Program-made: the position numbers and the translations under genes
NCBI RefSeq assembly: GCF_013365435.1
Contig: NZ_CP046577.1
Span: forward strand, 960,001-992,000
Length of the DNA stretch: 32,000 nt
Origin: Wolbachia endosymbiont of Litomosoides sigmodontis
GTDB lineage: Bacteria > Pseudomonadota > Alphaproteobacteria > Rickettsiales > Anaplasmataceae
Direction of reading: 5' to 3'
Notes under the pieces: model-generated
What the model was told of the DNA's origin: nothing
Database searches by the model: none
Seen by the model: only the letters and a program-made list of their open reading frames with translations
Shown: positions 5,045 through 32,000 of the stretch, piece after piece
Layout of the letters: each line of letters starts with the position of its first letter
Position numbering within the stretch: position 1 is the stretch's first letter

Positions 5045-5209
5045 TTAAATTACTCAAATTCAGTAAATTTACTTGATAATAAGTTACTATCTTTTTAGTA
5101 ACATGCAAATACTTTTCATCTCCACAGACATAAATAGCAAACATGGTTTACTTATTCCCAACATTTATATTAATAATTACCATCAATCACTAGATGGTAA
5201 CTATTAATA

Positions 5210-6105
5210 CCAATTCCCACTGAGCAAGGAACGGATAGATAATGATGAGAAAGAAGTCATGCTGAAGTAAGTGAAATAACAAAGATTTAAATGGCGTTGA
5301 AATCAAAATTATCTGATAAAAAAGTTGTAAAATCAGCAAAAGAAATGCTGAAGAAAGTGCAAAATAGCGCACATATTGCAAAAAACTAAATGCTGCAATT
5401 GCAGTAAAAAGCACAATATAATAGCTGTAGCAAAAATACGCTGTATTTCAAGAACAGCACCACTGCATGGATAAATCATCTTAAATTTGAAAAAAGTAAA
5501 ATTATTTATTCTTTCAAAGCCATAAAAAACTAAATTAAATCAGAGTCAATTTGAATAAGTTGAAGTATGAATACAAGGAAACCTTATGTTATCATTAAGG
5601 AATGAAGATAATAATCAGGGAAAATTTGACTTGAGTATTAGCAAGTCTACAGCACATCTTAATATGCAAAAAATGTTATACATTACACCAAGACTAACTT
5701 GCAATGAACAAGATAAAGGTGGACAAGAGGAGTTAAAAAAAACTTGACGAGATTATTAGTAAGTATCTCAAAAAAAGTTACTTTTCTTTAATGAATTGTG
5801 GTTTAGCACACATTCAGAAGTTGGATACTGGTGATTAAAAAAGGATGTTAAAACGCAGATTAAAGTAAAATTAGGTAGATAAAGTTTTTACTTCTACAAT
5901 GCAGCCCATTTTAGAAATGGGAAGAATTCTATCTTATTTGCATCGAATGTCAACACTGATTATATAAATATGTTTCTTGAACAAATGTTGCAGTATTTAG
6001 AAACATGAAGAGCATTTCTTGTCATGAATTGTGCTAGTTAGTATAAGTAGAAAAATTTAAATGTACCTAAAAATATTGAGATTACATACCTACCATCATA
6101 CTTAT
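5210..6105 (+). mobile_element. degenerate IS630/Tc1-mariner-like element, copy A (3'-truncated)
   Basis: Begins TA|CCAATTCCCACTG. It carries a decayed HTH region and transposase body full of stops. It breaks off inside the YLPSY... (LPPYSPDLNPIE-like) block at the TA at 6105-6106. It is a near-identical inverted copy of 6292..7187. Confidence 0.8.
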
Positions 6106-6106
6106 A

Positions 6107-7187
6107 CTAATTCTCGTTATTAATTGGTTAAATAAGTAAAATTGCAAAGTTATTTGATTGCGAATGAGAAAGAGAGGTAATATGTTTATATAAAGTGCTT
6201 CCAAGCAAAGCAATTATGTTATAAACTTTATTATGCAAAATGGTCTGTTTATATAGATAACCAAAGTCTCTCAATAGGATTGAATTTAGGTAAGTATGTG
6301 ATGGTAGATATATAGTCTTAATATTTTTAGGCACATTAAAATTTTTCTACTTATACTAACTAGTACAATTCATGACAAGAAATGCTCTTCATGTTTCTAA
6401 ATACTGCAACATTTGTTCAAGAAACATATTTATACAATCAGTGTTGACATTCGATGCAAATAAGATAGAATTCTTCCCATTTCTAAAATGGGCTGCATTG
6501 TAGAAGTAAAAACTTTATCTACCTAATTTTACTTTAATCTGCGTTTTAACATCCTTTTTTAATCACCCGTATCCAACTTCTGAATGTGTGCTAAACCACA
6601 ATTCATTAAAGAAAAGTAACTTTTTTTGAGATACTTACTAATAATCTCGTCAAGTTTTTTTAACTCCTCTTGTCCACCTTTATCTTGTTCATTGCAAGTT
6701 AGTCTTGGTGTAATGTATAACATTTTTTGCATATTAAGATGTGCTGTAGACTTGCTAATACTCAAGTCAAATTTTCCCTGATTATTATCTTCATTCCTTA
6801 ATGATAACATAAGGTTTCCTTGTATTCATACTTCAACTTATTCAAATTGACTCTGATTTAATTTAGTTTTTTATGGCTTTGAAAGAATAAATAATTTTAC
6901 TTTTTCCAAATTTAAGATGATTTATCCATGCAGTGGTGCTGTTCTTGAAATACAGCGTATTTTTGCTACAGCTATTATATTGTGCTTTTTACTGCAATTG
7001 CAGCATTTAGTTTTTTGCAATATGTGCGCTATTTTGCACTTTCTTCAGCATTTCTTTTGCTGATTTTACAACTTTTTTATCAGATAATTTTGATTTCAAC
7101 GCCATTTAAATCTTTGTTATTTCACTTACTTCAGCATGACTTCTTTCTCATCATTATCTATCCGTTCCTTGCTCAGTGAGAATTAGG
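6107..7187 (-). mobile_element. degenerate IS630-like element, copy B (full length, about 1.08 kb, no intact transposase)
   Basis: The right-end terminus reads TA|CTAATTCTCGTTATTAATTGG on the + strand at 6105. ORF 6128..6334 keeps YLPSHTYLNSILLRDF (a relic of YLPPYSPDLNPIE). ORF 6559..6810 keeps the mid-transposase region. The left end is at about 7187. Confidence 0.8.
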
Positions 7188-7281
7188 CATAAGTAGGTTA
7201 CCACTTCACTATAAAATAAGTTTCCCTTACAAACTGTTTTGCTAATATTAATTCTCACACTAAACTCTAAATTAACTATAA

Positions 7282-7851
7282 ATGATGAAAAAGATAAAAT
7301 TAGGAATATTAATTTCAGATAGGGGATCAAACATGCAAGCATTGATGAAAGCATGTCAAGATTACAGCTTTCCTGCAGAAATGGCATGTGTTATCTCAAA
7401 TAATAATAAAGCTGCTGGTCTAAAAGTAGCAGAGCAGGCAGGAATGCCAACGTTTATTGTTAAAAATAAACCACTTGATGTTGATAAAATTCATGAAATA
7501 CTCGTTCAATATAAAGTCAATTTAGTTTGCCTTGCGGGATTTATGAGAATTCTCAAAGCTGACTTTCTTAGTAAATGGCATGGCAAAGTTATAAATATTC
7601 ATCCTTCTTTACTTCCTTCTTTTAAGGGACTAAATGCCCAGGAACAAGCTCTGAAAGCAGGTGTAAAAATTACAGGTTGTACTGTACATTACGTCACTCC
7701 TGAAGTTGATTCTGGAACTATAATTGCTCAAGCTGCTGTACCAGTGTTACCAAATGATACTATTCATAGTCTCTCAGAACGAATCTTAACTGAAGAGCAT
7801 AAATGTTACGTGAAAGCAGTAAAGTTAATAGCAATACTAAGTAAAAACTAG
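7282..7851 (+). CDS. purN: phosphoribosylglycinamide formyltransferase
   Basis: 189 aa with ILISDRGSNMQAL at the N-terminus, the catalytic block NIHPSLLPSFKG, and GCTVHYVTPEVDSGTIIAQ. Confidence 0.93.
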   Translation: MMKKIKLGILISDRGSNMQALMKACQDYSFPAEMACVISNNNKAAGLKVAEQAGMPTFIVKNKPLDVDKIHEILVQYKVNLVCLAGFMRILKADFLSKWHGKVINIHPSLLPSFKGLNAQEQALKAGVKITGCTVHYVTPEVDSGTIIAQAAVPVLPNDTIHSLSERILTEEHKCYVKAVKLIAILSKN

Positions 7852-8036
7852 AAAGACCGTAAAAGTACAGCTATCTTTTCCTTTATCAACCGCATTTTCA
7901 TTTTTAAAAAGGTATGATAAAACCTCAACTTTGCCTTTTTATTAACTGTATTACTATTAGCTTATTTACTATTATCTCCTTTCAGCATTTTCTTTAAAAA
8001 ACGAACCTCTTGTCGTTTTTCTCTGTCTTTCTTATA

Positions 8037-9115
8037 TCAATTCCCACTGTTAATAGACTAACAAGTGACATTGCAGAATTGCTTAATTCGGAGTGAAAAA
8101 GAGAGAAATAAATTTGCACAAAGTGCTTCCAAGTAAGGCAATTATATCATAAACTCTATTACGCAAATAGCTCTGTTTTATATACAATCAAAGTCTCTCA
8201 ATAGGATAAAACTTAGGTGGTATGATGGTAGGTATATAATCTTGATATTTTAAAATATCTTTAAATTTCTCTACTTATGTAGATTAGCATAATCCATGAT
8301 AATAAATGCTTCTCATGTCCTTAAACATTGCAACATTTATTCAAGAAATATATTCATATAATCAGTGTTGACATTCTGTATTAATAAGTTAGAGCTCTCT
8401 CCATTTCTAGGATTAACTGCACTGTAGAGATAAAAATTTTATTTACCTAATTTTACTTCAGCCTACGCTCTAACACCATTTTCAAATCATCCGTGTCCAA
8501 CTTTCGAATGTGTACTAAACTGCAATCCATCAAAGATGAGTAACTTTTTTTAAGATATTTGCTAATAGTTTCATTAAGTTTTTTTAAACTCTTCCTATTT
8601 ATCTTTATCTTGTTCATTGTAAATTGATCTTGGCATAATATATAAAAACTTCATTTTTCGCACATTAAGATGTGCTATAGACTTACTAATACTCAAGCCA
8701 AATTTTTCCTGATTATTATCCTCATTCCTTAATAGAAACATTAAGATTTTTTTGTATCCATACTTCAACTTGTTCAAATTAACTCTGATTCAATCTAATT
8801 TTTTTACAGCTTTGAAAGAGTAAACAATTTTACTTCTTTTCCAAATTTTAGGTGATTTGCCCATGCAGTAGCGCTGTTCTTGAAATGCAGCGTATTTTTG
8901 CTATGGCTATTATACAGTGCTTTTTGCTGTGATTAAAGCATTTAGTTTTTTGCAAAATATACATTATTTCTCACTTTCTTCAACACTTCTTTTGTCTATT
9001 CCACAACTTTATTTTGATTTTAAACGCTATTTAACTTCGCTATTTTACTTACTTCAATATAGCTCCCCCCCCTTTTCCACTATTGCCTAATCCATCCCAG
9101 TACAGCTAAAATTAG
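8037..9115 (-). mobile_element. degenerate IS630-like element, copy C (full length)
   Basis: Right-end terminus TA|TCAATTCCCACTGTTAATAG at 8035. The body is collinear with copy B at roughly 80% by eye. The left end is at ...AAATTAG|TA at 9115. Confidence 0.8.
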
Positions 9116-9508
9116 TATTAGAACACAGGTTAAAGTAAAATTAGGTAGATAAAATTTTCATCTCTATAGTGCAGTTAATCCTAAGAATAGAAAGAGCTCT
9201 AATAAATGTTGCAATATTTAAAGACATGAGAAGCTTTTATTATCAGGGATTATGCTAGTCTACATAAGTAGAGAAATTTAAAGATATTTTAAAATATCAA
9301 GATTATATACCTACCATCATACTCACCTAAATTTTATCCTATTGAGAGACTTTAGTTGTATATAAAACAGAGCATTTTGCGTAATAAAGTTTATGATATA
9401 ATTGCCTTATTTGAGAGCACTTTGTACAAATTTATCATCTCTTTTTCTCACTCAGCAATTAAACGACTCTCAATGTCACTTATCTGACCTATTAACAATT
9501 ATAATTAG
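9116..9508 (+). mobile_element. IS630-like right-half fragment, copy D, inverted against copy C
   Basis: Starts TA|TTAGAACACAGGTTAAAGTAAAATTAGG (element position about 645), directly abutting the left terminus of C. It ends ...ATAATTAG|TA at 9508. It carries an internal deletion of about 50 bp relative to C. Confidence 0.75.
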
Positions 9509-9527
9509 TATAAACACTTGTGTAAGG

Positions 9528-12368: not shown

Positions 12369-13237
12369 TTATTTTTGCGAAAATGCGGCCCGCATAGGCT
12401 TTTTAACAAAGAAATACTCGGCAAACACAAATACTCTGCTGTCGGCATATAATATCATGGATGAAGCTATACTAAACAAAGTAGCAGAAGCGACCATTAA
12501 GCAACAACAAGTAAGCCCAGCCCGGCTAATGATATAGCGTCTATCAACACCATCATATTCAGTTATTAACTTTTTAACTTTTACTACTGTACAGCAAAAC
12601 AAGCACCCCAATGCAATTTATTATCACAAGCAAAATACGAAGTGAGTTCTATTAATCTCCTTCGTAGTAACTTTTTACAGGAGAAGCAGCTGCATTAAGA
12701 TCTACACCATACTTTAAAATAAAGCTAAGTGTTTTTCTTTTTCACACTCACTACAATGCATTATTTCATATAGTGGAGTGCTATCAAATATATTCTATAT
12801 ATTTAGGATCAGCCCTATATCTTTAAAACTAATTCTGCAACTTCATAGAATTTATCATGCGCAGCTCCATCTAATGGAGCAAGATCATGCATTCATTATA
12901 GATTAGAGTTAGCACTACACTCTAAAAGTAATTTTACAATATTACCACATGTGATAATTCCCAAATAACGCAATGAAGTATACTTACGGAATGTTTTTAT
13001 ACTAGAATTAAAATTCTTCTCTAAAAGCAGGCTTATAAGATCAATATTATACAAATTGATAGCAGCACCCAACAGCAAGTGACCCTGTACACATTTCATT
13101 AACGTAATCATCAAATTTCTCATCTTTACTACTCTTAAACTTGAAAAAGAGCTTATTAAGAAATAATGTATTTCTCTTGAAGAGAGCCGTATATAAGCAA
13201 AATTTTAAATCCTTGATAGAGCTAATTCTAGCTAATA
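12369..13237 (-). pseudogene. ankyrin-repeat protein with C-terminal transmembrane tail, frameshifted and 5'-truncated by the IS
   Basis: ANK-like repeats are spread over three frames: GHLLLGAAINLYNIDLISLLLEKN; TSLRYLGIITCGNIVKLLLECSANSNL; LAPLDGAAHDKFYEVAELVLK; STPLYEIM...; LKYGVDLNAAASP. The last ORF (12369..12611) holds a hydrophobic tail, GLTCCCLMVASATLFSIASSMILY. The upstream reading frame runs straight into the IS terminus at 13238. Confidence 0.6.
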
Positions 13238-13530
13238 CCAATTCTTATTGTTAGTAGGTCAAATAAGTAGCATTATAGAGTATTTAATTGCGAAGTGAGA
13301 AGAGAGATAGGTAATAAATTTGCACAAAGTGCTCTCAAGCAAGCAATTGTATTATTGCTTTATTATGAATAATGTTCTGTTTTATACACAATTAAAGTCT
13401 CTCAATAGGATTAAGCTCAGCTGAGCATGGTAGTAAGTATATAATCTCCGTATTTTTAGGTACCTTTAAAATTTTTTTAATTCATACCAATTAACACAAT
13501 TCATGATAAGAAAGTCTTCTATGCTATTAT
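13238..13530 (-). mobile_element. IS630-like right-end fragment E1 (about 290 bp)
   Basis: TA|CCAATTCTTATTGTTAGTAGGTCAAATAAG terminus at 13236. It is truncated at element position about 800 and abuts the left terminus of E2. Confidence 0.75.
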
Positions 13531-13531
13531 A

Positions 13532-14485
13532 GAAATTTCCACTTTACAAAGAACAGATAGATAATAATGGGGAAAAATCCTTGCTGAAGTAAGAAAAATA
13601 GCGAAGTCAAATGGCATTGAAATTATTAGTGAAAAAGTCGTGGAATCAATAAAAGAAATTCCGAATAAAGCATATATTGCAAAAAACTAAATGCTGTAAT
13701 TGCAGCAAAAAAAACACTGTATAACAGCCGTAGCAAAAATATATTGCATTTTAATAACAGCATAATTTCATGGATATAAAAAACTAATATTACCATATTA
13801 AAAAATGAAAATAATAGTTTAATAAAAATTTGGCTTGAATATCAGCAAATCTACAGTACACCTTAATATTCAAAAAATGAAGTTTTTGTATATTACGCCA
13901 AGAACAATTCACAATAAACAAGATAAAGGTAAGCTGGAAGAGTTTAAAAAAACTTAATGAGACTATTGACAAGTACTCTGAAAAAAGGTTACTCATCTTT
14001 GATGAATCGCGATTTGGCATACATTCAAAAATTAGCTACGAGTGATTTAAAAAGGGCGTTAGAACACAAATTAAAGTAAAATTAAGTAGATAAAAATCTT
14101 CATTTCTATAGAGCAAATAATCTTAGAAATGGAGATGATTCTAGCTTATTTGCACTGAATGTCAACACTGGTCATATGAATATATTTCTTGAATAAATGT
14201 TGTAATATTTAAAAATATGAGAAGCATTTCTTATCATAGATTACATTAGTTAACATAAGTCAACACATTCAAAAGTACTTAAAAATATGGAGATTATATA
14301 CCTACTACCATACTTAGTTGAACTTAATCTTATTGAGAGACTTTAGTTCATATAAAACAGAACATTTCGCATAATAAAGTTTACGATATAACTGCTTTGC
14401 TTGAGAGCGCCTGTTAAATCAACATAACTATAAATTAAAAGCATCATCATCTCTCTCAAATAAGCTTATTTACTCTTTATATTAG
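13532..14485 (+). mobile_element. degenerate IS630-like element, copy E2
   Basis: Keeps IFDESRFG (13995..14018, first-D region of the DDE transposase) and IIYLLPYLVELNLIERL (14293..14340, relic of YLPPYSPELNPIE). The frame is broken many times. The right end is eroded by deletions. Confidence 0.8.
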
Positions 14486-14820
14486 CTCGTCAACAAATTC
14501 ATTACCAGTTAATATTAGCAAAAATCTGGATTATAATTCACACCAAATTTAATTAAAAAATATGCATAAAATTCCGGACTAAAATAGGTAGTCCACTTCA
14601 TTCCACTTAGATATAGTTTAAATAATTGCTTTATCAGTAATTTCTTTGGAAAATCGTGGTAGTGCTTGCAATAAGATATCTTTTTCATAGCCCAAGTCTA
14701 TAGTACAGGCCATAAATAACAATATAAATAAATATGCCTTCTTCATATTCAAATTTTTAGTCTTTTTTTAACATTTAAATCTCATACACCACCTCAGATT
14801 TTCCTTGATGTAGGTAAAAG

Positions 14821-14894
<74 letters not shown>

Positions 14895-15003
14895 TCGTTA
14901 TTTATTTAGTTATTATATATGCAATAATGGGAAATAAAAGAATAAAATCACATTTTAAGGTGTATATTTTGGTATTCTTAAACTCTCCTTGATACAATAG
15001 TTA

Positions 15004-16074
15004 CACCATTATCATTGTTAATAGATTAAATAAGAGACATTGCAAAGTGAGAAAGAGAGTAATAAATTTACACAAAGCACTCTTAAGCAAAGCAATTATA
15101 TTATTGCTTTTATTTATAAAATGTTCTGTTTTATATATAACTAAAGTCTCTCAATAGAAGAGAGCTCAACTAAGTATGGTGGTAGGTATATAATCTACAT
15201 ATTTTTAAGTACTTTTGAATGTGTTGACTTATGTTAACTAATAACACAATCTATAATAAGAAAGGCTTCTCGTGTTTTAAAAAGTTACAACATTTATTCA
15301 AGAAATACATTCATACGACCAGTGTTGACATTCAGTCAAATAAGCTAGAATCATTTCCATTTCTAGGATTATTTGCACTATAGAGATAAAAATTTTGTCT
15401 ACTTAATTTTACTTTAATTTGTGTTCTAATATCCTTTTTAAACCACTCGTAGCTAATTTTTGAATATCTGCCAAATCGTGTTCATCAAAGATGAATAACC
15501 TTTTTTCAGAGTACTTACCAATAAGTCTCATTGAGTTTTTTTAAACTCTTTCTGCTACCTTTATCTTGTTTATTGTGAATTGTTCTTGGTGTAATACAAA
15601 AACTTCATTTTTTGAATATTAAGGCGTACTGTAGTCTTGCTGACATTCAAGCTAAATTTTTCTTAGATTATTATTTTCATTCCTTTAATGGCAATATTAT
15701 AGTTTCTTTGTATCTATACTTTAACTTATTCAAATTGACTTTGATTCAATCTAGTTTTTCTATGACTTTAAGAGAAAGCAAACAATTTTTCTTCTTCTCC
15801 AAATTTTAGGTGCTTTATCTATGTAGTTAGTGCTGTTCTTAAAATGAAACATATTTTTGCCACGGCTATTATACTCGCTTTTTTTGCCGCACTTACAGCA
15901 TTTAGTTTTTGCAACATATGTGTTATTTCGCACTTTTCTCAGCATTTCTTTTTCTAATTTTATGACTTTTTTCATCTAATAATTTCAATGCCATTTAAAC
16001 TTCGCTATTTTATTTACTTTAGCATGACTTCTTTTCCATTATTGTCTATTCGTTCCTTGTGTAATAGAAACTGG
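15004..16074 (-). mobile_element. degenerate IS630-like element, copy G1 (full length)
   Basis: Right-end terminus around 15004 (CACCATTATCATTGTTAATAG). Left end ...GAAACTGG|TA at 16074. Same decayed architecture as B, C and E2. Confidence 0.8.
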
Positions 16075-16078
16075 TATG

Positions 16079-16783
16079 AGAATAATAATTGAGAAAAAAA
16101 TTGACTTGGATGTCAACTGAGTATATAATACATTGCAATATGTAAAAAATGAAATTCTCGTATATTACGCCAAAACCAGTTCAAAGTGAACAAGGTTAAG
16201 AGGTAAACAGAAAGAGTTTAAAAAAAATTTAACGAGACTTATTGGTAAATACTCTGAAAAAAGGTTATTCATCTTTGATGAACACGATTTGGCAGATATT
16301 CAAAAATTAGCTACGAGTAGTTTAAAAAGGATATTAGAACACAAATTAAAGTAAAATTAAGTAGACAAAATTTTTATCTCTATAGTGCAAATAATCCTAG
16401 AAATGGAAATGATTCTAGCTTATTTGACTGAATGTCAACACTGGTCGTATGAATGTATTTCTTGAATAAATGTTGTAACTTTTTAAAACACGAGAAGCCT
16501 TTCTTATTATAGATTGTGTTATTAGTTAACATAAGTCAACACATTTAAAAGTACTTAAAAATATGGAGATTATATACCTACCACCATACTTAGTTGAGCT
16601 CTTTTCTATTGAGAGACTTTAGTTATATATAAAACAGAACATTTTATAAATAAAGGCAATAATATAATTGCTTTGCTTAAGAGCACTTTGTATAAATTTA
16701 TTTTATCTCTCTTTCCCACTCCGCAATTAAACTACTCTGCGACGTAGCTTATTGACCTATTAATTACTAATAGCAAGGATTAG
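16079..16783 (+). mobile_element. IS630-like 5'-truncated copy G2, inverted against G1
   Basis: Starts at element position about 390 (GAATAATAATTGAGAAAAAAATTGACTTGG), immediately after the TA flanking the left end of G1. It runs to a right-end terminus near 16783. Confidence 0.75.
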
Positions 16784-22703: not shown

Positions 22704-23177
22704 TTGACTAGCACAAAAAAACTACTTGAACAAACCTTGCCAGCTCTTTTAAACCATTAGAATTGAACATATTCAGTTATCTTTAATCTCTGCAGAGAGA
22801 AAATGATAAGGTATCATAGTTGGCGTCTTATGTTTAATTTTTTGCACCATACACATCATGTTTTAACAATGTTTCTAGTTCTATATCTATAGAAACCGAA
22901 ATATGCTTACAGATCGCTCGAAGTAATATAATATATTAATTTTAGAATTAGAAAATAAGCAACTTTTACCACAGAATTCTCTCGCCTTTTTCTGCTTAAT
23001 AAAATTTAAAAACATTTATGACTAAAGGTTAATTGTAATAAAAGGTAGCTGAGTCGCGGTAAGTATTCAAAATATAAAAAACACCTATGTTTTTAAATAG
23101 ATATTAACTAGTGCTTTTTCTCATTTGAGCCCCTTAACTGCTCAAGCAAAAATTTGTCACAAATTATGAAGCTAATA

Positions 23178-23619
23178 CTAATTCTCACTATATTAACAGG
23201 CCAAATAAGTGAAATTATAGAGTTGTTTAATTGCAGAGTGAGAAAGGGAGGTAATAAATTTGCAAAGCGCTCTCAAGCAAAGCAATTGTATGATAGACTT
23301 TATTACGCAAAATATTCTATTCTATATATAGAATTAAAGTCTCTCAATAAGATTTAGCCCAGGTGAATTGGTGGCAAGTATGTAATCTCAATATTTTTAG
23401 GTACCCTTAAATTTTTCGGTTTATTTTAATTAGAATAATTCTAGCCAAGAAAGGTTTTTCATATTCTTAAGCATTGCAACATTTATTCAAGAAATATATT
23501 CGTATAATTAGCGTTGACACCCGGTACAAATAAGCCAAAATTCTCTACATTTCTAAGATTAATTGCACTATAGAGATAAAAATTTTGTCTATCTAACTTT
23601 ACTTTAATCCATGTTCTAA
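23178..23619 (-). mobile_element. IS630-like right-half fragment F1 (about 440 bp)
   Basis: TA|CTAATTCTCACTATATTAACAGG terminus at 23176. It is truncated at element position about 645 (...CATGTTCTAA|TA) and abuts the left terminus of F2. This is the same junction as C/D in the opposite orientation. Confidence 0.75.
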
Positions 23620-23621
23620 TA

Positions 23622-24544
23622 CCAATTCTCATTTTATAAGCAACGAATAGATAATAACGGAAAAGAAGTCATACTAAAGTAAGCAAAATAACGAGGTTCA
23701 AATGATGATGAAATCAAAATTATGGGGTAAAAAGCCTTGGAAATTAGCAAAAGAAATACTGAAGAAAGTGTAAAACAACGCACATGTTATAAAAAATTAA
23801 ATGCTGTGATTGCAGCAAAAAAAAGCATAATATAATACTGTAGCAAAAATATGTTTCATTTTAGGAATAACACTAACTACATGGACAACGTACTTAAAAT
23901 TTAGAAGATAAGTAAAATTGTTTACTCTCCTTCAACATTGTAAAAGAACTAGATTAGTCAGAGCCAATTTGAACAAGTTGAAGTATAGAACAGAAAAACT
24001 TAATGAGATTATTGGTAAGTATCATAAACAAGAGTTATTCATCTTTTATAAATCTCGGTCTGATACATATTCGAAAATTGAACACTAGTGATTTAAAAAA
24101 GGTATTAAAACACAAGTTAAAGTAAAATTAGATAGACAAAATTTTTATCTCTATAGTGCAATTAATCTTAAAAAGAGAGAGAATTCTGGCTTATTTGTAC
24201 AGAATGTCAACGCTAATTATATGAATATATTTCTTGAATAAATGTTGCAATATTTAAGAACATAACAAGCCTTCCTTGGCATGAATTATTCTAATTAACA
24301 TAAGTTAAAAAATTTAAAAGTACCTTAAAATATCAAGATTATATACTTATTACCATATTCACCAAAGTTTAATCTTATTGAGAGATTTTAATTACATATA
24401 AAACAGAACATTTTGCGCAACAAAGTCTATAATGCAATTCCTTGCTTAAGGAAGCTTTATGCAAATTTATTGCCTCTCTTTTTTACTCTACAATAAAATA
24501 ATCCTGCAATGTCACTTATTTAAGTTACTAACAAAGAAAATTGG
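23622..24544 (+). mobile_element. degenerate IS630-like element, copy F2 (internal deletion of about 190 bp)
   Basis: Left terminus TA|CCAATTCTCATTTTATAAGC and right terminus ...GAAAATTGG|TA at 24544. The block between about 23985 and 24000 is missing relative to other copies. Confidence 0.8.
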
Positions 24545-24546
24545 TA

Positions 24547-25024
24547 TAAAAAGCGAAAAAGAGAGAATGGAAAATTGATTTGATTGTAAAAAGAAATCTA
24601 TATCGAACTGATTTACACGAGGAAATCATAAAATCAAGATCCCAATGTTACGCATTGTAATAGCAGAGGAAAAGGAGTGCTGTTATGACAGGAAAATAAT
24701 GTGTCATTTCAACACATGATTAGGGAAAAAGACATAAATCTCAGTGGCATTGAAAAGACAACGATTGAGGTATCATGAAAGTGTCTGGACTGCAGAATAG
24801 TGCGATCTTAGCCTACTAATGGCGCAAACTTTAGTGCATGACATTAGAATTTATAACTAACGATAATTTACTTTTATCGTCTAAAATCTATATCGAATAC
24901 AAGGATTAAAGTCAACTAGATTACAGTGTTACGCACTAAAATGATAAGAAAAGTACAGAAATAACGTAATGGAACGTTATCCAGGTGGTTACCAATCTCA
25001 AGAAAGTGCAACATCATTACTTGT
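24547..25024 (+). repeat. R480 repeat, copy 1 (unclassified)
   Basis: About 480 bp, collinear with 27910..28397 at roughly 85% by eye. Both copies start right after the TA that follows an IS right terminus. It contains two direct sub-repeats of about 90 bp (AAATCTATATCGAA...GTTACGCA...). Confidence 0.7.
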
Positions 25025-25610
25025 ATAGAAAAATCAAAACCATATTCGCATGGCTACATGCATACAAAAATGAAGTGCATTTTGGTCATTAACAAAATTG
25101 ATCTGGTAAAAAAGCTGAGCTAAAGATAGTGTGCGGACATCTGAACTTGCTTTATAAATTTGAAAAAACTTTTATAATATCAGCATTAAAAGAGTGATGG
25201 ACTTTATAAGTTAATGGATTACTTATCTGAAGTTGTACTGGTAAGTTCTCAATTTTATAGGAAAGATCAGGTAACTAATTCCTCGACAGGTTTTTTGTTC
25301 AGCGAAAATTACAAAGGGAAAATTGTTCTTGAATTTGCATAAGGAATTTCCATATTCTGCAGATGTCATAACAGAACAATTTGAAGAGGGAAAAGATGAA
25401 AGTTTGTCCATAAAACAAGTAATGTTTGTCCTGAAAGATAGTCATAAAAAATAGTGCTAGAGAAGCCGTGAAAGTAATATTAAGGAAAAAATTGGCATCA
25501 AAGGTATGTGTTGAATTAGAAAAGTTATTTGAGCATAAAATGCATCTATTTTTGTTTTTGAAAATACAACATTGAACTGATCACCTAAGGAACATATAGA
25601 AAATGTTTAA
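25025..25610 (+). pseudogene. era: era pseudogene (lacks about the first 100 codons, many frameshifts and stops)
   Basis: Collinear with era 30085..30667. Reads EKSKPYSHGYMHTKMKCILVINKIDLVKK-LS*R*..., with stops and frame changes throughout. Confidence 0.85.
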
Positions 25611-26412
25611 TTCTTTATTGGTATTTGATATTGAAACTATACCAGATGTAAATTCCTGCAGGAATTTACTCGATATTAATAATAGTAGCGTAAAAGAGAA
25701 AAGAGATGCGTTAACAAAATACCACCTTGAAATAACAAACGGACAAAACCCCTTTTTGCGTCAGCCCTTTCACCAAGTTATAGTTGTTAGTTTTTTACTT
25801 TGCAGTGTAGCTTACCAAAGTGGTTACGAAGTATTCACCCTTCAGGAAATTAGATCTGGAGGCACACTAGATTCCAGTGAAAAGGAACTGGTAAAAGAAT
25901 TTTTTGACTACATATCAGAAAAAAAACCAAGGCTAATTTCTTTCAATGGACGCACTTTTGACATACCAGTACTTAAATATCGTGCTATGGTCCATGGCAT
26001 CCAAGCAGAATATTTTCATAAAGCTGGCGATAAGTGGAATAGCTATAATCAAAGATATAGTAGTGATTGGCATTGTGATTTACTCGAATCTCTCTCTGAT
26101 TTTGGAGCATCTGCTAGAGTAAAAATGAACGAGGTCTGTGCAGCATTTAATCTTCCTGGTAAAATTGGAGTTGATGGATCGCAAGTTGTAGATTTGTATG
26201 ATAGCGGTAAAATACAAGAAATCCGAAATTATTGTGAAACAGACGTAGTTAACACTTATTTAATTTATTTGAGATTTATGCATCATCAAGGAAGAATCAC
26301 TACCAAAAGCTACAACAAAAATGTAGAGGAGCTACTCTCGGAATGCGAAAAAAAAGCGCACCTAAAAAAATTTAAAGAGGAGTGGGAAATATATCTACAC
26401 TCAGCTAAGTAA
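25603..26412 (+). CDS. PolB-like 3'-5' exonuclease (DEDDy, RNase H-like fold, COG3298-type)
   Basis: 269 aa with Exo I LVFDIETIPD, Exo II LISFNGRTFDIPVL and Exo III NYCETDVVNTYLIY. The start is embedded in ATGTTTAA, which overlaps the (decayed) era stop. Confidence 0.8.
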   Translation: MFNSLLVFDIETIPDVNSCRNLLDINNSSVKEKRDALTKYHLEITNGQNPFLRQPFHQVIVVSFLLCSVAYQSGYEVFTLQEIRSGGTLDSSEKELVKEFFDYISEKKPRLISFNGRTFDIPVLKYRAMVHGIQAEYFHKAGDKWNSYNQRYSSDWHCDLLESLSDFGASARVKMNEVCAAFNLPGKIGVDGSQVVDLYDSGKIQEIRNYCETDVVNTYLIYLRFMHHQGRITTKSYNKNVEELLSECEKKAHLKKFKEEWEIYLHSAK

Positions 26413-26526
26413 CGTGAAAGATGATAGGCAGGAGATTGTAGAAGGTTTTAGCTCCTTTTATTTTCATGCTAAGTATGATAAAATTATTCATTCAAGGAAT
26501 GAATTTCCTCTTCCGATTGAGTAACA

Positions 26527-26814
26527 CCAATTATCATTGGTAATAGGTCAAATAAGCGACATACAGAATTGCTTAATTGCAAAATGAGAAAAGAGAGGTG
26601 ATAAATTTGCAAAAGCACTCTCAAGCAAAGCAATTGTACTATAGACTTTACTATACAAATGTTCTGTTTTATATACAAATAAAGCCTCTCATAAGATTAA
26701 GCTCTAGTGAGTATGGTGATAGGTATATAATCCTGATATTTTTAGGTACCTTTAAATTTTCTGACTTATGCTAACTAGAACCATACATGACAAGAAAGGT
26801 TTTTTGTGTTTTTA
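26527..26814 (-). mobile_element. IS630-like right-end fragment H1 (about 290 bp)
   Basis: Terminus CCAATTATCATTGGTAATAGGTCAAATAAG. It is truncated at element position about 800 and abuts the left end of H2. Same junction class as E1/E2 and I1/I2. Confidence 0.75.
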
Positions 26815-26816
26815 TA

Positions 26817-27907
26817 ATAATTTGCAATGTAAAGAAAAAGATAGACAATAATAGAAAAGAAATCTTACTGAAGTAAGTAAAATAGCGAGATTCAAACGCT
26901 GTTAAAATCAAAATCATTGAATAAAAAAGTAATGAAATCAGCAAAAGAAATACTGAAGAAAGTGCAAAATAACGTACATGTTGTAAAAAATTAAATGCTG
27001 TAACTGCAGCAAAAAAGCACAGTATACTAGCGTAGCAAAAATATGTTGCACTTCATAAACAACATTAATTGCATGGATAACGCACCTAAAATTTGGAAGA
27101 TAAGAAAAATTATTTACTCTCCTTCAACATCGTAAAAAAACCAGATCAGTCATAGTCAATTTGAATAAGTTGGACATAAAACAAGAAAACTCTAACATTA
27201 TCATTTAAAGAAATGAGGATAGAAATCTAGGAAAATTTGGCTTAAATGTTAGAAAATCTACAATACATCGTAATACGCAAAAAATGAAGTTTTCATATAT
27301 CACGCCAAGACCAGTTTATAGTAAACAAGATTAAAGGTAAATAAGAAGAGTTTTAAAAAATTTAATGAGATTATTGGTAAATATCATGAATAAGAGTTGT
27401 TCATCTTTGATGAATCTCGGTTTGGCATACAATTCGAAAATTGAACACTGGTAATTTAAAAAAGGCATTAGGGCATAGATTAAAGTAAAATTAAGTAAAC
27501 AAAATTTTTATCTCTACAGTGCAGTTAATTCTAGAAATGCAGAAACCTATGGCTTACCTACATCAAATGTCAACATTAATTATCGAATATATTTCTTGAA
27601 TAAATGTTGCAATATTTAAGAACATGAAAAACCTTTCTTGACATGAATTATTCTAATTAACATAAATTAAAAAATTTAAAAGTACCTAAAAATATCAAGA
27701 TTATATACTTACTACCATACTCACCCAAATTTAATCCTATTGAGAAATTTTAGTTATATATAAAACAGAGCATTTTGCACAACAAAGTCTATAATGCAAT
27801 TACTTTACTTGAGGAAGCTTTATACAAATTTATTACCTTTCTTTTTTACTCTACAATAAAATAACTCTGCAATGTCACTTATTTGACTTGCCAACAAAGA
27901 AAATTGG
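26817..27907 (+). mobile_element. degenerate IS630-like element, copy H2 (full length)
   Basis: Left end ATAATTTGCAATGTAAAGAAAAAGATAGACAATAATAG and right end ...GAAAATTGG|TA at 27907. The frame is broken throughout. Confidence 0.8.
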
Positions 27908-27909
27908 TA

Positions 27910-28397
27910 TAAAAAGCGAAAAAGAGAATGGAAAATTGATTTGATTGTGAAAAGAAATCTATATTGAACTGATTTACATGAGAAAATCATAAAATAAAAT
28001 CGAGATCCCAATGTTACGCATTGCAATGACAGAGGAAAAGTAGTACCTAATATGACAGGAAAATAATGTGTCATTTTAACATATGATCAGGAAAGAAGAC
28101 ATAAATCCCAATGGTATTATTAGAAAGGCAATGATTGAGGCATCAGAAAGTGGCTGGACTATAGAGCAGTGCAATTTTGCCTACCAATGGGGTAAACCTT
28201 AGTGCATGACACTAGAATTTATAATTAACGATGATTTATTTCTATCATCCTGAAATCCATATCTGATATAATGGTCAAAGTTAACTAAGATTACAGTGTC
28301 ACGCGCTGAAATGATAAGAAAAGTGCAAGAATAACGTGATGAAACGCTATCCAAGTAAATTACCAATCTCAAGAAAGTGTAGCAGCATCATTTATTG
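27910..28397 (+). repeat. R480 repeat, copy 2
   Basis: Collinear with 24547..25024. Similarity ends at ...ATCATTTATTG, where copy 1 continues into era' and copy 2 continues into the SurA-like remnant. Confidence 0.7.
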
Positions 28398-28419
28398 AGA
28401 TCTTAAAAAATAATTGTGA

Positions 28420-29625
28420 CATTATTTCTCTTATAGAGTCTTGAAATATTGGATCTTTAACGTTAACCTGGATTACAATATCAGTTTTAAAATCTGTATT
28501 ACCTTCAAGTTATTTATTACTGTGCCTCGCAACCTTGAGTCACTTATCACAGCAGTGTAAAAATCTGGATTTTGCACGTAACTTCATCAGTTAACCTTTT
28601 TTATTATTAGGAAATAGTTTGGTAACTACTTCTTTAGCTATTGGGTCCATTCCTTTTTTGCTAAAAACCTTTGCTATTTGACCTTATACTCTATACCAGT
28701 GATACCAAGAGATCCACTAAGCTTTTCTACTAGAATTAATTTTTGGTCATCTTTCGCATCAAGCACTTTTTTTACTACAGCTGATGTTCCAAGATCAGCA
28801 ATTTTGACAAATATCTTAGCTAATTCACTTTCAACAATCTTTACTCCTTTATTGCTAATACCCCTTCACATTAAATATTGCTCCTATTAAAGCTTTTTCT
28901 TTATCTGTTTGAGTTGCAATGCTTGATTCATCAGCTTTAACAAAGCGAGCCTTTTTCAGCTAAGAAATCCTTAACTGTCATTTTAGAATTGCTGTTGCCG
29001 TACACTGCGCTAAGCTCATCAAAAGATCTAGCAAATTTTTCTATTAGAATTGATTTTCGGTCATCTTTTGAAGAAAGTACTTTCTCTGTGAAAACTTTTT
29101 GATTTGCTGCATCTGTCAGATTGGAAGTATCTTTTTTAACAAACTTGCCTTCTAGTTCAGTTTTACAACTTTTTTTACTCGAATTACTTAGATCTGTTAC
29201 TCTAAACATAGCATCTGCAATAGGCTTTATTGACACTTCTTCTGCAAGGAGTATCGCTGTATCAGCGAACATTCTTCATATCAAGAACATCCTTCATAAG
29301 GAGCTCTTTTATAACTTCTTCTGCAAGAATTAATCTACCACCTATAGCTTTTTATGTAGCAAGCAATGTACTTACAATGTTACCAAGACCTTTTATTTGA
29401 ATTGCGCTACATCTCTTTTCTGATATATAAATTTTACCTTTCCTTTCAGCAGATTGCTTAATTTGATATCATTAATGTTAACTAGAGCAGAAATATTTGA
29501 AGCATCTTATGGTATTAGTCGTTGCCTCCACCATCTTTATAAATTATAGCTTTAACTTCATTTAGACATAATGTCATTCCTTTGGCTTTTACTAATTTTC
29601 CATAAAGATGAAAATTATCTACCAT
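28420..29625 (-). pseudogene. heavily decayed gene, possibly a SurA/PpiD-type periplasmic chaperone
   Basis: Minus-strand fragments occur in several frames. They include an N-terminal MVDNFHLYGKLVKAKGMTLCLNEVKAIIYK, LILAEEVIKELLMKDVL / ILLAEEVSIKPIADAMF, and two similar blocks, KDDRKSILIEKFARSFDELSAVYGNS and KDDQKLILVEKLSGSLGITG. The two blocks resemble the helix plus loop that precede parvulin cores. The family call is tentative. Confidence 0.3.
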
Positions 29626-29782
29626 ATCACTCTCTGTCAATTATAAAATCTAAAGATATATAAAAAAGTATAATTTTCATAAATGTCAGATCTTATATAA
29701 GACCCTCTTAAAGTTTATTGTTTTAGAATTCTCTTCATTGCACGCTTGACACTAAAACCTAGTTTTCTTTACAATTTCCTTT

Positions 29783-30667
29783 GTGAAAGAACAAAAATGC
29801 TTATTTATTACCATAGCTGGTTTACCAAATGCAGGAAAGTCTACACTAATTAACAGCATTATCGGTAAGAAAATTGCAATCGTTACTCCCAAAGTGCAAA
29901 CAACGAGAACACAAATAAGGGGTATTGCAATATGCAATGATACACAAGCTATCTTTACTGACTCTCCAGGGATATTTTCAGCGGAAACAAAACTTGAGAA
30001 AGCCCTGATCAAATCCGCATGGTCAGCAATCAAGGGTGATGACGTTACTTTGTTGCTTATTGATGTGAGTAATTATTTGGAAAATATAGAAAAAATCAAA
30101 ACCATATTCGCACGGCTGCAGCACATGAAAACAAAGTGCATTTTGGTCGTTAACAAAATTGATCTGGTAAAAAAATCTGAGCTAAAGATGGCATACGAAC
30201 ATCTGAATTTGCTTTATAAATTTGAAAAAACTTTCATAATATCAGCACTAAAGAGCGATGGACTTTCTGATTTGATGAATTACTTATCTAAAGTTGCACC
30301 GGTAAGCCCTTGGTTTTATGGAGAAGATCAGGTGACTGATTCCTCAACGTGGTTTTTGTCAGCGGAAATTACAAGGGAAAAATTGTTCTTGAATTTGCGT
30401 GAAGAATTGCCATATTCTGCAGCTATCAGGACCGAACAATTTGAAGAGAAAAAAGATGAAAGTTTAGTCATAAAACAAGTGATATTTGTACTGAAAGATA
30501 GTCATAAAAAAATAGTGCTAGGGAAGAGTGGAAGTAATATTAAGAAAATTGGCATTGAAGCGCGTATTGAATTAGAAAAGTTATTTGAGCGTAAAGTTCA
30601 TCTATTTTTGTTTGTGAAAGTGCGACCTTGGACTGATTGTCCTGAAGAATATATAGATGATGTTTAA
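29783..30667 (+). CDS. era: GTPase Era
   Basis: 294 aa starting at GTG. Contains G1 AGLPNAGKST, G3 DSPG, G4 NKID, and a C-terminal KH domain (VLGKSGSNIKKIGIEAR). Confidence 0.95.
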   Translation: MKEQKCLFITIAGLPNAGKSTLINSIIGKKIAIVTPKVQTTRTQIRGIAICNDTQAIFTDSPGIFSAETKLEKALIKSAWSAIKGDDVTLLLIDVSNYLENIEKIKTIFARLQHMKTKCILVVNKIDLVKKSELKMAYEHLNLLYKFEKTFIISALKSDGLSDLMNYLSKVAPVSPWFYGEDQVTDSSTWFLSAEITREKLFLNLREELPYSAAIRTEQFEEKKDESLVIKQVIFVLKDSHKKIVLGKSGSNIKKIGIEARIELEKLFERKVHLFLFVKVRPWTDCPEEYIDDV

Positions 30668-31378
30668 TCCTTTGTTGGCATTTGATATTTAAACTATACC
30701 AGATGTAAATTCCTGCAGAGATTTGCTCAGTATTAGCGATGATAATAGTATAAAAGAGAAGAGAGGCGCGTTAACAAAATATTAACTCGTAATAATAAAT
30801 GGACAAAACCCTTTCTGTATCAGAATTTTCACCAAGTTGAAGTCATTAATTTTTTAATTTGCAATCAACTTAACAAAGTGGTTATGAAGAACACTAGATT
30901 TCAGTAAAAAAGAACTAGTAAAAGGATTTTTTAATTACATATCAGAGAAAAAAACAAGCTAATTTCCTTACAATAGATACACGTTTGAAATACCAATACT
31001 GAAATATTATGCTATGGTCCATAGCATTTAAGCAGAATAACTATAATCAAAGATATAGTAGTGGTTAGCATTGTGATTTACTTAAATCTTTCTCTGATTT
31101 TAAGCCTCTGCTAGAGTAAAAATGAATGAGATTTGCATAGCCGTTTAATTTTCTTGGAAAAATTAGAGCTGATTGCTTACAAGTTGTAGGCTTGTATAAT
31201 AGTAGAAAAATACAAGAAATTCAAGATTATTCTGAAGTAGAAGTAGTTAACACTTAATGGAAGAATCACTACCTAAAGCTACAACAAAAATGTAGAGGAG
31301 ATGCTTTTGGAATGCAAAAAGCGCACCTAAAACATTTTAAAGAGAAGTGGAGAATATACCTCCATATTCAGCCAAGCG
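30660..31378 (+). pseudogene. PolB-like exonuclease pseudogene (paralog of 25603..26412)
   Basis: Starts with the same ATGTTTAA overlap with the era stop. Reads MFNPLLAFDI*TIPDVNSC..., so the Exo I glutamate codon is now TAA. It has many further stops and deletions and is about 90 bp shorter than the intact copy. Confidence 0.85.
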
Positions 31379-31496
31379 GTGTGGAAGATAATAGGTAGAA
31401 GATTGTGAAAAAGATTTAGCTCATTTTATTTTTATGCTAAGTATGATAAAATTATCCATTCAAGGAATACATCTCCCTCATTCCAATTGAGGAATA

Positions 31497-31776
31497 TCAA
31501 TTATCATTGTTAATAAGCCAAATAATCAACATACAGAATTGCTTAATTGCAAAATTGAGAGAGAGGGTAATAAATTTGCACAAAGCATTTTCAATACAAA
31601 GCAATTGTACCATAGACTTTGCTACCATTTTATATATAATTAAAGCCTTTCAATAAGGCTAAGCTCTGATGAATATAGTGATAGATATATAATCTTAATA
31701 TTTTGAGGTACCTTTAAATTTTTTGACTTATGCTAATTAAAGCATACATGACAAGAAAGGTTTCTCATGTTCTTAC
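31497..31776 (-). mobile_element. IS630-like right-end fragment I1
   Basis: TA|TCAATTATCATTGTTAATAAGCC terminus at 31495. Collinear with H1 at roughly 87% by eye and has the same junction to the following copy. Confidence 0.75.
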
Positions 31777-32000
31777 AATAATTCGCAACGTACAAGAAAA
31801 AGATTTTCAATAATAGAAAAGAAATCTTACTGAAGTAGGTAAAATAGCAAGATTTAAACGCTGTTAAAATCAAAATCATTGAATAAAAAAGCAGTGGAAT
31901 CAGCAAAAGAAATGCTGAAGAAAGTGCAAAATAACGCACATATTGTAAAAAACTAAATGCCGTAATTGCAGCAAAAAAGCACAGTATAATAGCACTGCAA
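31777..32000 (+). mobile_element. degenerate IS630-like element, copy I2 (runs off the window)
   Basis: Left end ATAATTCGCAACGTACAAGAAAAAGATTTTCAATAATAG. Collinear with the H2 5' region. Confidence 0.75.

Follow-up and report, generated by a model that had tools for sequence, protein, structure and literature searches.

A tandem duplication bounded by dead insertion sequences, with complementary loss of era and an adjoining exonuclease gene, in the Wolbachia endosymbiont of Litomosoides sigmodontis

Introduction

How can two genes that overlap one another in related strains become separated, and reversed in order, within a single genome that has lost neither of them? The genes considered here are era, which encodes the GTPase Era, and exo, which encodes a PolB-like 3'-5' exonuclease, and the genome is that of the supergroup D Wolbachia endosymbiont of Litomosoides sigmodontis (wLsig), a model filarial symbiont and drug target. 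We analysed a stretch of 32,000 nucleotides of this genome (contig NZ_CP046577.1 of assembly GCF_013365435.1, positions 960,001 to 992,000 of the forward strand), hereafter called the window and numbered from its first letter. The functional order in the window is now exo (from 25603) followed, 3.4 kb further on, by era (from 29783), where the ancestral order is an adjacent era-exo pair. A first-pass annotation made from the letters alone had proposed a tandem duplication bounded by insertion sequences (IS), in which copy 1 kept exo and copy 2 kept era. The self-BLAST blocks, the lesions in the lost genes and the chimeric middle IS reported below bear this out, and we are highly confident that the locus arose by IS-mediated tandem duplication followed by reciprocal gene loss, whatever the date of the event.

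Results

Two copies of one segment between three insertion sequences

The window was extended with a second record of the locus (L001) as far as what would be position 40667 (adding 19782 to an L001 coordinate gives the window coordinate), and the ends of the elements were mapped on a consensus of the IS family. In the list that follows, primes mark pseudogenes, F, H and I are three copies of the IS, R480 is a non-coding segment, and X is a gene upstream of era.

23175-24547, + strand: IS F, left boundary of the duplication; a degraded, putatively IS630-family element without an intact open reading frame (ORF), matching the 12-copy consensus
24548-26523: unit copy 1, made up of R480 copy 1, era', exo and a spacer
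24548-25024, + strand: R480 copy 1, left end of the duplicated unit, ancestrally downstream of gene X; 84.5% identical to 27911-28392
25025-26523: era', exo and spacer of copy 1
25025-25610, + strand: era' pseudogene, codons ~102-294, frameshifted and with stops; deletion junction at 25024/25025
25603-26412, + strand: intact exo, PolB-like 3'-5' exonuclease of 269 aa, PF10108 at full length
26524-27910, + strand: IS H, junction copy of the putatively IS630-family element; chimeric, with a breakpoint near 27589
27911-31493: unit copy 2, made up of R480 copy 2, X, era, exo' and a spacer
27911-28392, + strand: R480 copy 2, placed by self-BLAST and collinearity with relatives
28393-30084: stretch present only in copy 2 (1,692 bp), holding most of gene X, the X-era intergenic region and era codons 1-101
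28363-29625, - strand: gene X pseudogene, located by tblastn with the intact L014 protein
29746-29775, + strand: sigma-70-like promoter match TTGACA-18-TACAAT, a consensus match only (11/12 positions)
29783-30667, + strand: intact era, GTPase Era of 294 aa, NCBIfam equivalog
30085-31493: rest of era, exo' and spacer of copy 2
30660-31380, + strand: exo' pseudogene, Exo I glutamate codon changed to TAA, deletions of 31, 29, 29 and 4 bp, frameshifts
31494-32874, + strand (the window ends at 32000; the rest is from L001): IS I, right boundary; degraded, putatively IS630-family

Self-BLAST of the extended window finds two collinear paralogous blocks, the first pairing 23994-25018 with 27356-28392 (84.8% identity over 1043 columns) and the second pairing 25024-27910 with 30085-32874 (80.5% identity over 2,917 columns, E = 0). 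Over the gap-free columns of the era 3'/exo segment the copies are 82.7% identical, and overall the figure is about 80-83%, somewhat lower than the 85-88% at which it had first been judged by eye. F, H and I all have the same orientation, on the + strand relative to the consensus, and with U for the duplicated unit the arrangement is IS-U-IS-U-IS. The start-to-start offsets are 3349 bp from F to H and 4970 bp from H to I, exactly as first reported, and they differ because a 1,692-bp stretch is missing from copy 1 and because exo' has lost 93 bp; the first-pass estimates of these two lengths were about 1.69 kb (28398..30084, here 28393-30084) and about 90 bp.

Intact era occurs only in copy 2 and intact exo only in copy 1. 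The Era protein passes both of its NCBIfam models (NF000908, 330.6 bits against a cutoff of 237; TIGR00436, 238.9 bits against a cutoff of 116), carries the Pfam domains MMR_HSR1 and KH_2, and is closest to Era of the Litomosoides brasiliensis symbiont (wLbra), with 93% identity. The exonuclease matches PF10108 (DNA_pol_B_exo2) over positions 1-213 of 213 (E = 3e-73, 246.5 bits against a cutoff of 24), and the nearest relatives of both intact proteins are all from Wolbachia. On contig OY365737.1 of GCA_959347385.1 each of the two proteins has a single coding gene. Their twins are broken in different ways. In copy 1, era' is recovered by tblastn only as pieces in three frames with 45-56% identity, begins at about codon 102, and shows indels when aligned with the intact gene. 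In copy 2, the glutamate codon of the FDIET motif of exo' has changed from GAA to TAA, and four deletions (31, 29, 29 and 4 bp) are joined by several 1-bp indels. The gene states described at first pass, a truncated and broken era beside an intact exo in copy 1 and an intact era beside an exo killed at its Exo I glutamate in copy 2, are thus the ones that we find.

The segment R480 had been treated in the first-pass annotation as a repeat in its own right. We reject an independent repeat family: R480 occurs only twice in the 40 kb examined, once in each unit copy, and in wWb, in a wWb-like strain (L014) and in wLbra it aligns collinearly with sequence that is present once. By this comparison R480 is the left end of the ancestral segment.

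A single era-exo locus in other Wolbachia

A scan for Era, restricted to one genome per species, returned ten loci, nine of them from Wolbachia; the remaining one (L012, from an alphaproteobacterial metagenome-assembled genome, 47% identity) was left out. Five more Wolbachia loci came from protein look-ups, and two of these (L013, from wWb, and L014) carry era. The first-pass annotation had pointed to related genomes as a place where a single era-exo locus should be seen, and that is what they hold: a single era is present in all ten other Wolbachia loci retrieved, and exo follows it directly in nine of these, including wLbra, wWb, wDimm and two named for supergroup A or B insect hosts (L010 matches over era only). 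ORFs read in three loci (wLbra, wWb and L014) show era and exo intact in each, and the alignment, which took in wLbra, wWb and both wLsig copies, has the stop of era overlapping the start of exo in the sequence ATGTTTAA. In wWb (L013 7347-10792) and in L014, the order R480, X, era, exo runs without a break in a single collinear block; the counterparts of R480 itself lie at L013 7347-7807 in wWb and at about L003 137-617 in wLbra. Whether copy 1 is aligned to wLbra, wWb or L014, the alignment breaks at 25024/25025, and because this breakpoint is common to the three, the 1.69-kb difference between the copies is a deletion from copy 1 and not an insertion into copy 2.

The outer flanks of the locus are the same in wLbra as in wLsig. 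A wLbra contig with the iscS-like gene (the end of L016) follows the window collinearly until it ends ~150 bp inside F, and the wLbra era contig (L003) opens in the final 136 bp of an IS and goes on through R480, X, era, exo, an IS and a nuoN-like gene, being collinear with 27758-33998; the right flanks of the two strains are likewise collinear to the equivalent of 33998. wLbra therefore has an IS at the site of F, after the iscS-like gene, and an orthologue of I, and no more than one Era and one exonuclease are on record among its proteins.

Further from the Litomosoides strains the surroundings change. The non-coding sequence after the iscS-like gene (22715-23006) is about 70% identical to wWb L013 6684-6979, which lies ~370 bp upstream of R480; the neighbour at that site in wWb is an OTCase-family (pyrB-like) gene and not iscS, and what comes after the iscS-like gene in wBm and wBp is truB-rpsO-pnp. 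Judged from these alignments, synteny around the locus appears to differ between the Litomosoides strains and those of Brugia and Wuchereria.

One further record joins the two genes in a different manner. In the 2,184-bp contig WNGO01267427.1 of GCA_009772655.1, a very fragmented assembly of more than 267,000 contigs, a 404-aa ORF (L015 718-1932) links the KH-domain region of era to the exonuclease; it is probably Wolbachia DNA, or a transferred fragment, within a host genome assembly.

Gene X, upstream of era, had been labelled SurA-like, and this label we reject. Its intact orthologue in L014 (397 aa, L014 846-2039, - strand) matches no Pfam or NCBIfam family above cutoff and no SurA domain, its sole Pfam match being a sub-threshold one to LptD_N (E = 0.008, 16.8 bits against 20.4), and BLASTP against a Wolbachia SurA_N protein finds no similarity (E = 0.18). 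The wLsig pseudogene aligns with the L014 protein at ~50% identity over three frames by tblastn. Gene X thus stands as the gene of a Wolbachia protein of 397 aa that contains an internal repeat and belongs to no recognised family, intact only in L014 and fragmented in wLsig (28363-29625, - strand), wLbra (L003 591-1404, - strand) and wWb (L013 7826-8963, - strand); from these alignments it seems to be decaying in parallel among filarial strains.

The bounding elements

A majority consensus of 12 IS copies, ten from the extended window and two from wLbra, translates, a few stops aside, to a transposase with a winged-helix HTH_33 domain (PF13592, E = 1.3e-12) and a DDE_3 domain (PF13358, E = 2.3e-20), the combination found in IS630-family transposases, and by these domain matches F, H and I belong to that family. 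The ends of the element are inverted (CCAATT...AATTGG), and TA stands beside most ends of F, H and I. No single copy is intact or has a notable ORF, and since the copies are only 70-87% identical to one another (13-30% diverged), all of them are old and dead.

The terminal inverted repeats are about 300-420 bp long (26524-26827 / 27607-27910; 23203-23623 / 24101-24521) and include the 3' end of the transposase frame, which is unusually long for bacterial IS630, and they are apparently where the short-read contigs of wLbra break. At least ten degraded copies of this type lie in 40 kb (5195-9513, 13230-16765, F, H, I, and the L001 equivalent of 36900-37757), and the 20-kb wWb locus has none. The distribution suggests an old burst of this IS that is specific to the Litomosoides Wolbachia lineage. 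Two of the copies form a 914-bp inverted repeat of 97.9% identity (5195-6104 / 6291-7203, ~186 bp apart); because the other pairs in the window reach only 70-87%, these arms reflect either a recent inverted duplication or gene conversion that has kept them alike. Between IS630-type remnants lies the sole RNA gene found in the window by an Rfam scan, a tRNA-Met (CAU) at 14820-14894 on the - strand.

The middle insertion sequence is a recombinant of the outer two

If the unit was duplicated by unequal crossing-over between I on one chromosome copy and F on another, the left part of the middle IS should derive from I and its right part from F, and this is the pattern that H displays. Over the first ~1,250 columns of a four-way alignment, the identity of H is 83-92% with I and 71-85% with F, whereas over the last ~300 the figures are 90-91% with F and 75-84% with I. 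Among the positions that tell F and I apart, H shares the state of I at 120 and that of F at 64 left of ~27589, and right of it the counts are 47 for F and 17 for I; the maximum chi-square for this breakpoint is 28.7, a value reached by none of 2,000 permutations. When the wLbra orthologue of I is included, the quartet at the right end of H unites H and F at 24 sites against 4 and 3. H thus consists of ~1065 bp on the left that are I-like and ~320 bp on the right that are F-like, the signature of unequal crossing-over between F and I. Transposition as a composite transposon was rejected, since it would leave four ISs (IS-U-IS, IS-U-IS) and not three with a chimeric middle one.

The sequence beyond the window fits the same mechanism. 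It had been expected to continue past 32000 as an IS followed by R480; the IS does continue, to 32874, but what follows is unique sequence with a nuoN-like gene and no R480. The second half of that expectation was wrongly framed, since the unit has R480 as its left end, and unequal crossing-over predicts that none should follow.

From this structure we infer a mechanism of recombination and an order of events. The ancestor of the Litomosoides Wolbachia would have carried the segment U, made up of the spacer downstream of X (R480), gene X on the minus strand, and era overlapping exo, between the same-orientation and already diverged IS630-type copies F and I. Unequal homologous recombination of I on one chromosome copy with F on the other would then have produced F-U-H-U-I, leaving every gene of U redundant. 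In copy 1, one 1.69-kb deletion would have taken out X together with the promoter region of era and its codons 1-101, after which the remnant of era decayed; in copy 2, exo would have decayed through the nonsense mutation at its catalytic glutamate and four deletions. The end state is one functional era in copy 2 and one functional exo in copy 1, both under purifying selection, with the pair split and its order reversed, a case of tandem duplication - random loss (TDRL) whose fossils can still be read. Because any recombinational collapse of the repeat would remove an intact gene, the structure is locked. Under neutrality there are two equally likely outcomes, of which survivors in different units are one; the result is expected and unsurprising, and the description of the locus at first pass as a compact example of duplicate resolution is fair in that sense.

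Selection on the survivors and decay of their twins

With wLbra and wWb as references, private substitutions number 62 in the era segment and 18 in exo for copy 1, and 10 in the era segment and 77 in exo for copy 2, so that the pseudogene twins have drifted about four to six times faster than the survivors. Nei-Gojobori dN/dS ratios against wLbra are 0.12 for era of copy 2 and 0.06 for exo of copy 1; between the single-copy strains wLbra and wWb they are 0.18 and 0.15. Since the ratios of the wLsig survivors are as low as those of single-copy orthologues or lower, both retained genes are held by purifying selection and are thus functional.

The best promoter-like match of the region (29746-29775) sits just upstream of era, within the stretch deleted from copy 1, and if it is real the surviving exo would be transcribed from a new or internal promoter. 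The idea that the remnant of era has been kept as a leader for exo is not supported: the last 100 bp of era' are its most diverged part (20-25%).

Date of the duplication and alternative explanations

Because the neutral segments group the two wLsig copies together, we favour, by a modest preference, the view that the duplication took place in wLsig once its lineage had parted from that of wLbra. R480 has 19 sites that join the two wLsig copies, the other groupings having 7 and 3, and the left part of the IS joins H with I at 29 sites, with 17 and 13 for the alternatives. The divergence of the copies at these segments (~15%) is about three quarters of that between wLsig and wLbra (~18-19%), and the event is ancient under either date, which leaves the interpretation of the locus unaffected.

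Several observations weigh against this account or its date. In one stretch of era (25217-25499, 283 bp; 30278-30556 in copy 2), 13 sites unite copy 2 with wLbra against 2 and 3, and strict polarisation by outgroup leaves counts of 6, 0 and 3. The private divergence of era' (~10.7%) is about twice that of R480 (~5.9%). Both wLbra contigs break within the upstream IS, leaving room for an extra copy between them. Scans of the region for promoters and terminators find no enrichment over shuffled sequence, and the promoter matches are fewer than in shuffled sequence.

The likeliest alternative, though it strikes us as distinctly less probable than a later date, is that the same IS-mediated duplication predates the divergence of the L. 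sigmodontis and L. brasiliensis strains. Copy 1 would afterwards have disappeared from wLbra, for instance through recombination between F and H, which would regenerate exactly the wLbra layout, and gene conversion between the wLsig copies would have homogenised R480 and the IS; the complete scenario of an early duplication, later homogenisation in wLsig and repeat collapse in the sister strain seems to us a little more doubtful again. An early duplication would account for the era stretch, and it would fit the star-like pattern of the coding segments overall (informative sites 15/16/19) and a private divergence of era' that approximates the whole of the lineage since the split, with R480 at about half that. 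It has against it the grouping of the wLsig copies in R480 (19:7:3) and the left part of the IS (29:17:13), the want of support in exo for a union of copy 2 with wLbra (8/10/5), the single exo and single era protein on record from wLbra, and the extra events that it requires, conversion in wLsig as well as loss in wLbra. The conflict of the era stretch with its neutral flanks may reflect gene conversion, an older duplication or homoplasy, and homoplasy at fast-evolving sites would explain part of it.

That the two copies are instead independent loci, either ancient era-exo paralogs or a second copy gained horizontally from another Wolbachia and inserted next to the first, is very improbable and already largely refuted. 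Copy 1 is slightly nearer to wWb than copy 2 is (87.3% versus 85.2%), and two or three of its sites have states that are otherwise specific to the wWb clade. However, the higher similarity is explained by the intact exo of copy 1, copy 1 is nearest to wLbra (88.7%), the non-coding flanks (R480, the exo-IS spacer and the IS) are duplicated collinearly with the genes, and none of the relatives examined has two loci. A collapsed or expanded repeat in the long-read assembly is scarcely credible, even for a region rich in IS copies and with a second record of the locus (OY365737.1, GCA_959347385.1) that may not be independent, because the copies differ by 15-20% and carry different large indels and complementary lesions, and mis-assembly cannot create such divergence.

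Discussion

The wLsig locus makes readable an intermediate of a process that is usually only reconstructed after the fact, with the probable substrate (seen in the sister strain), the recombinant IS, both fossils and both survivors lying within 10 kb. It implies that dead insertion sequences can still rearrange a reduced endosymbiont genome, that an overlapping era-exo operon shared by the Wolbachia loci examined can be split and reordered while gene content stays unchanged, and that complementary decay can make a normally unstable tandem duplication permanent. For annotation and expression work on wLsig, era' and exo' should be treated as pseudogenes, and the surviving exo as a gene that has lost its putative ancestral promoter region. 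If the duplication did precede the split from wLbra, homologous recombination would have remained active for a long time in an obligate filarial mutualist that is usually regarded as recombinationally static, and TDRL, known from mitochondria, would be a process that reshapes operons in reduced bacterial genomes and locks in unstable duplications. The excerpts of the wLsig genome paper (PMC8116671) do not discuss this locus.

Comparison with known systems

Tandem duplication mediated by ISs, through unequal homologous recombination between flanking direct repeats, belongs to classical bacterial genetics (Anderson and Roth; Reams and Roth reviews). The present locus has the hallmarks of such events, namely three ISs in the same orientation, two copies of the unit, a hybrid IS at the junction and a probable IS-unit-IS substrate in a sister strain. 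Classical IS duplications are, however, usually unstable, young, near-identical and under selection, whereas the wLsig duplication is ancient (15-20% diverged), resides in a reduced endosymbiont in which the ISs are all dead, and became fixed by complementary decay.

The loss of one or the other copy of each gene also has precedents. Reciprocal gene loss, or divergent resolution of duplicates, is established in theory and in the yeasts that descend from a whole-genome duplication (Lynch and Force; Scannell et al.), and the wLsig locus shares with it the complementary retention of one functional copy per gene across two blocks. Divergent resolution in that sense takes place between populations or species, whereas here it is confined to one genome and one tandem locus and carries no implication for speciation.

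The closest parallel in gene order is the TDRL model, which explains changes of gene order in animal mitochondrial genomes (PMC5745709, PMC4223735); among the top matches of a literature search on TDRL in bacteria, we found only mitochondrial studies. As in that model, an adjacent block was duplicated in tandem, one copy of each gene was lost, the survivors lie in different copies, the order has changed and pseudogene remnants persist. Unlike the mitochondrial cases, in which replication slippage is the cause and mostly tRNA genes are involved, the wLsig case concerns a bacterial chromosome, IS recombination and protein-coding genes from an overlapping operon.

Among Wolbachia, the genome of wBm is reported to hold only 3 IS630 copies, and all of its 52 IS copies to be non-functional (Cerveau et al. 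2011, PMC3205602). The IS copies of the wLsig locus are fossils of the same kind, every one of them non-functional, but there are at least ten in 40 kb, against three in the whole genome of wBm, and one pair of them very probably caused a rearrangement. The wLsig locus is no new molecular system; it is a new and well-preserved example of two known processes combined, IS-mediated tandem duplication and the reciprocal loss of the duplicated genes.

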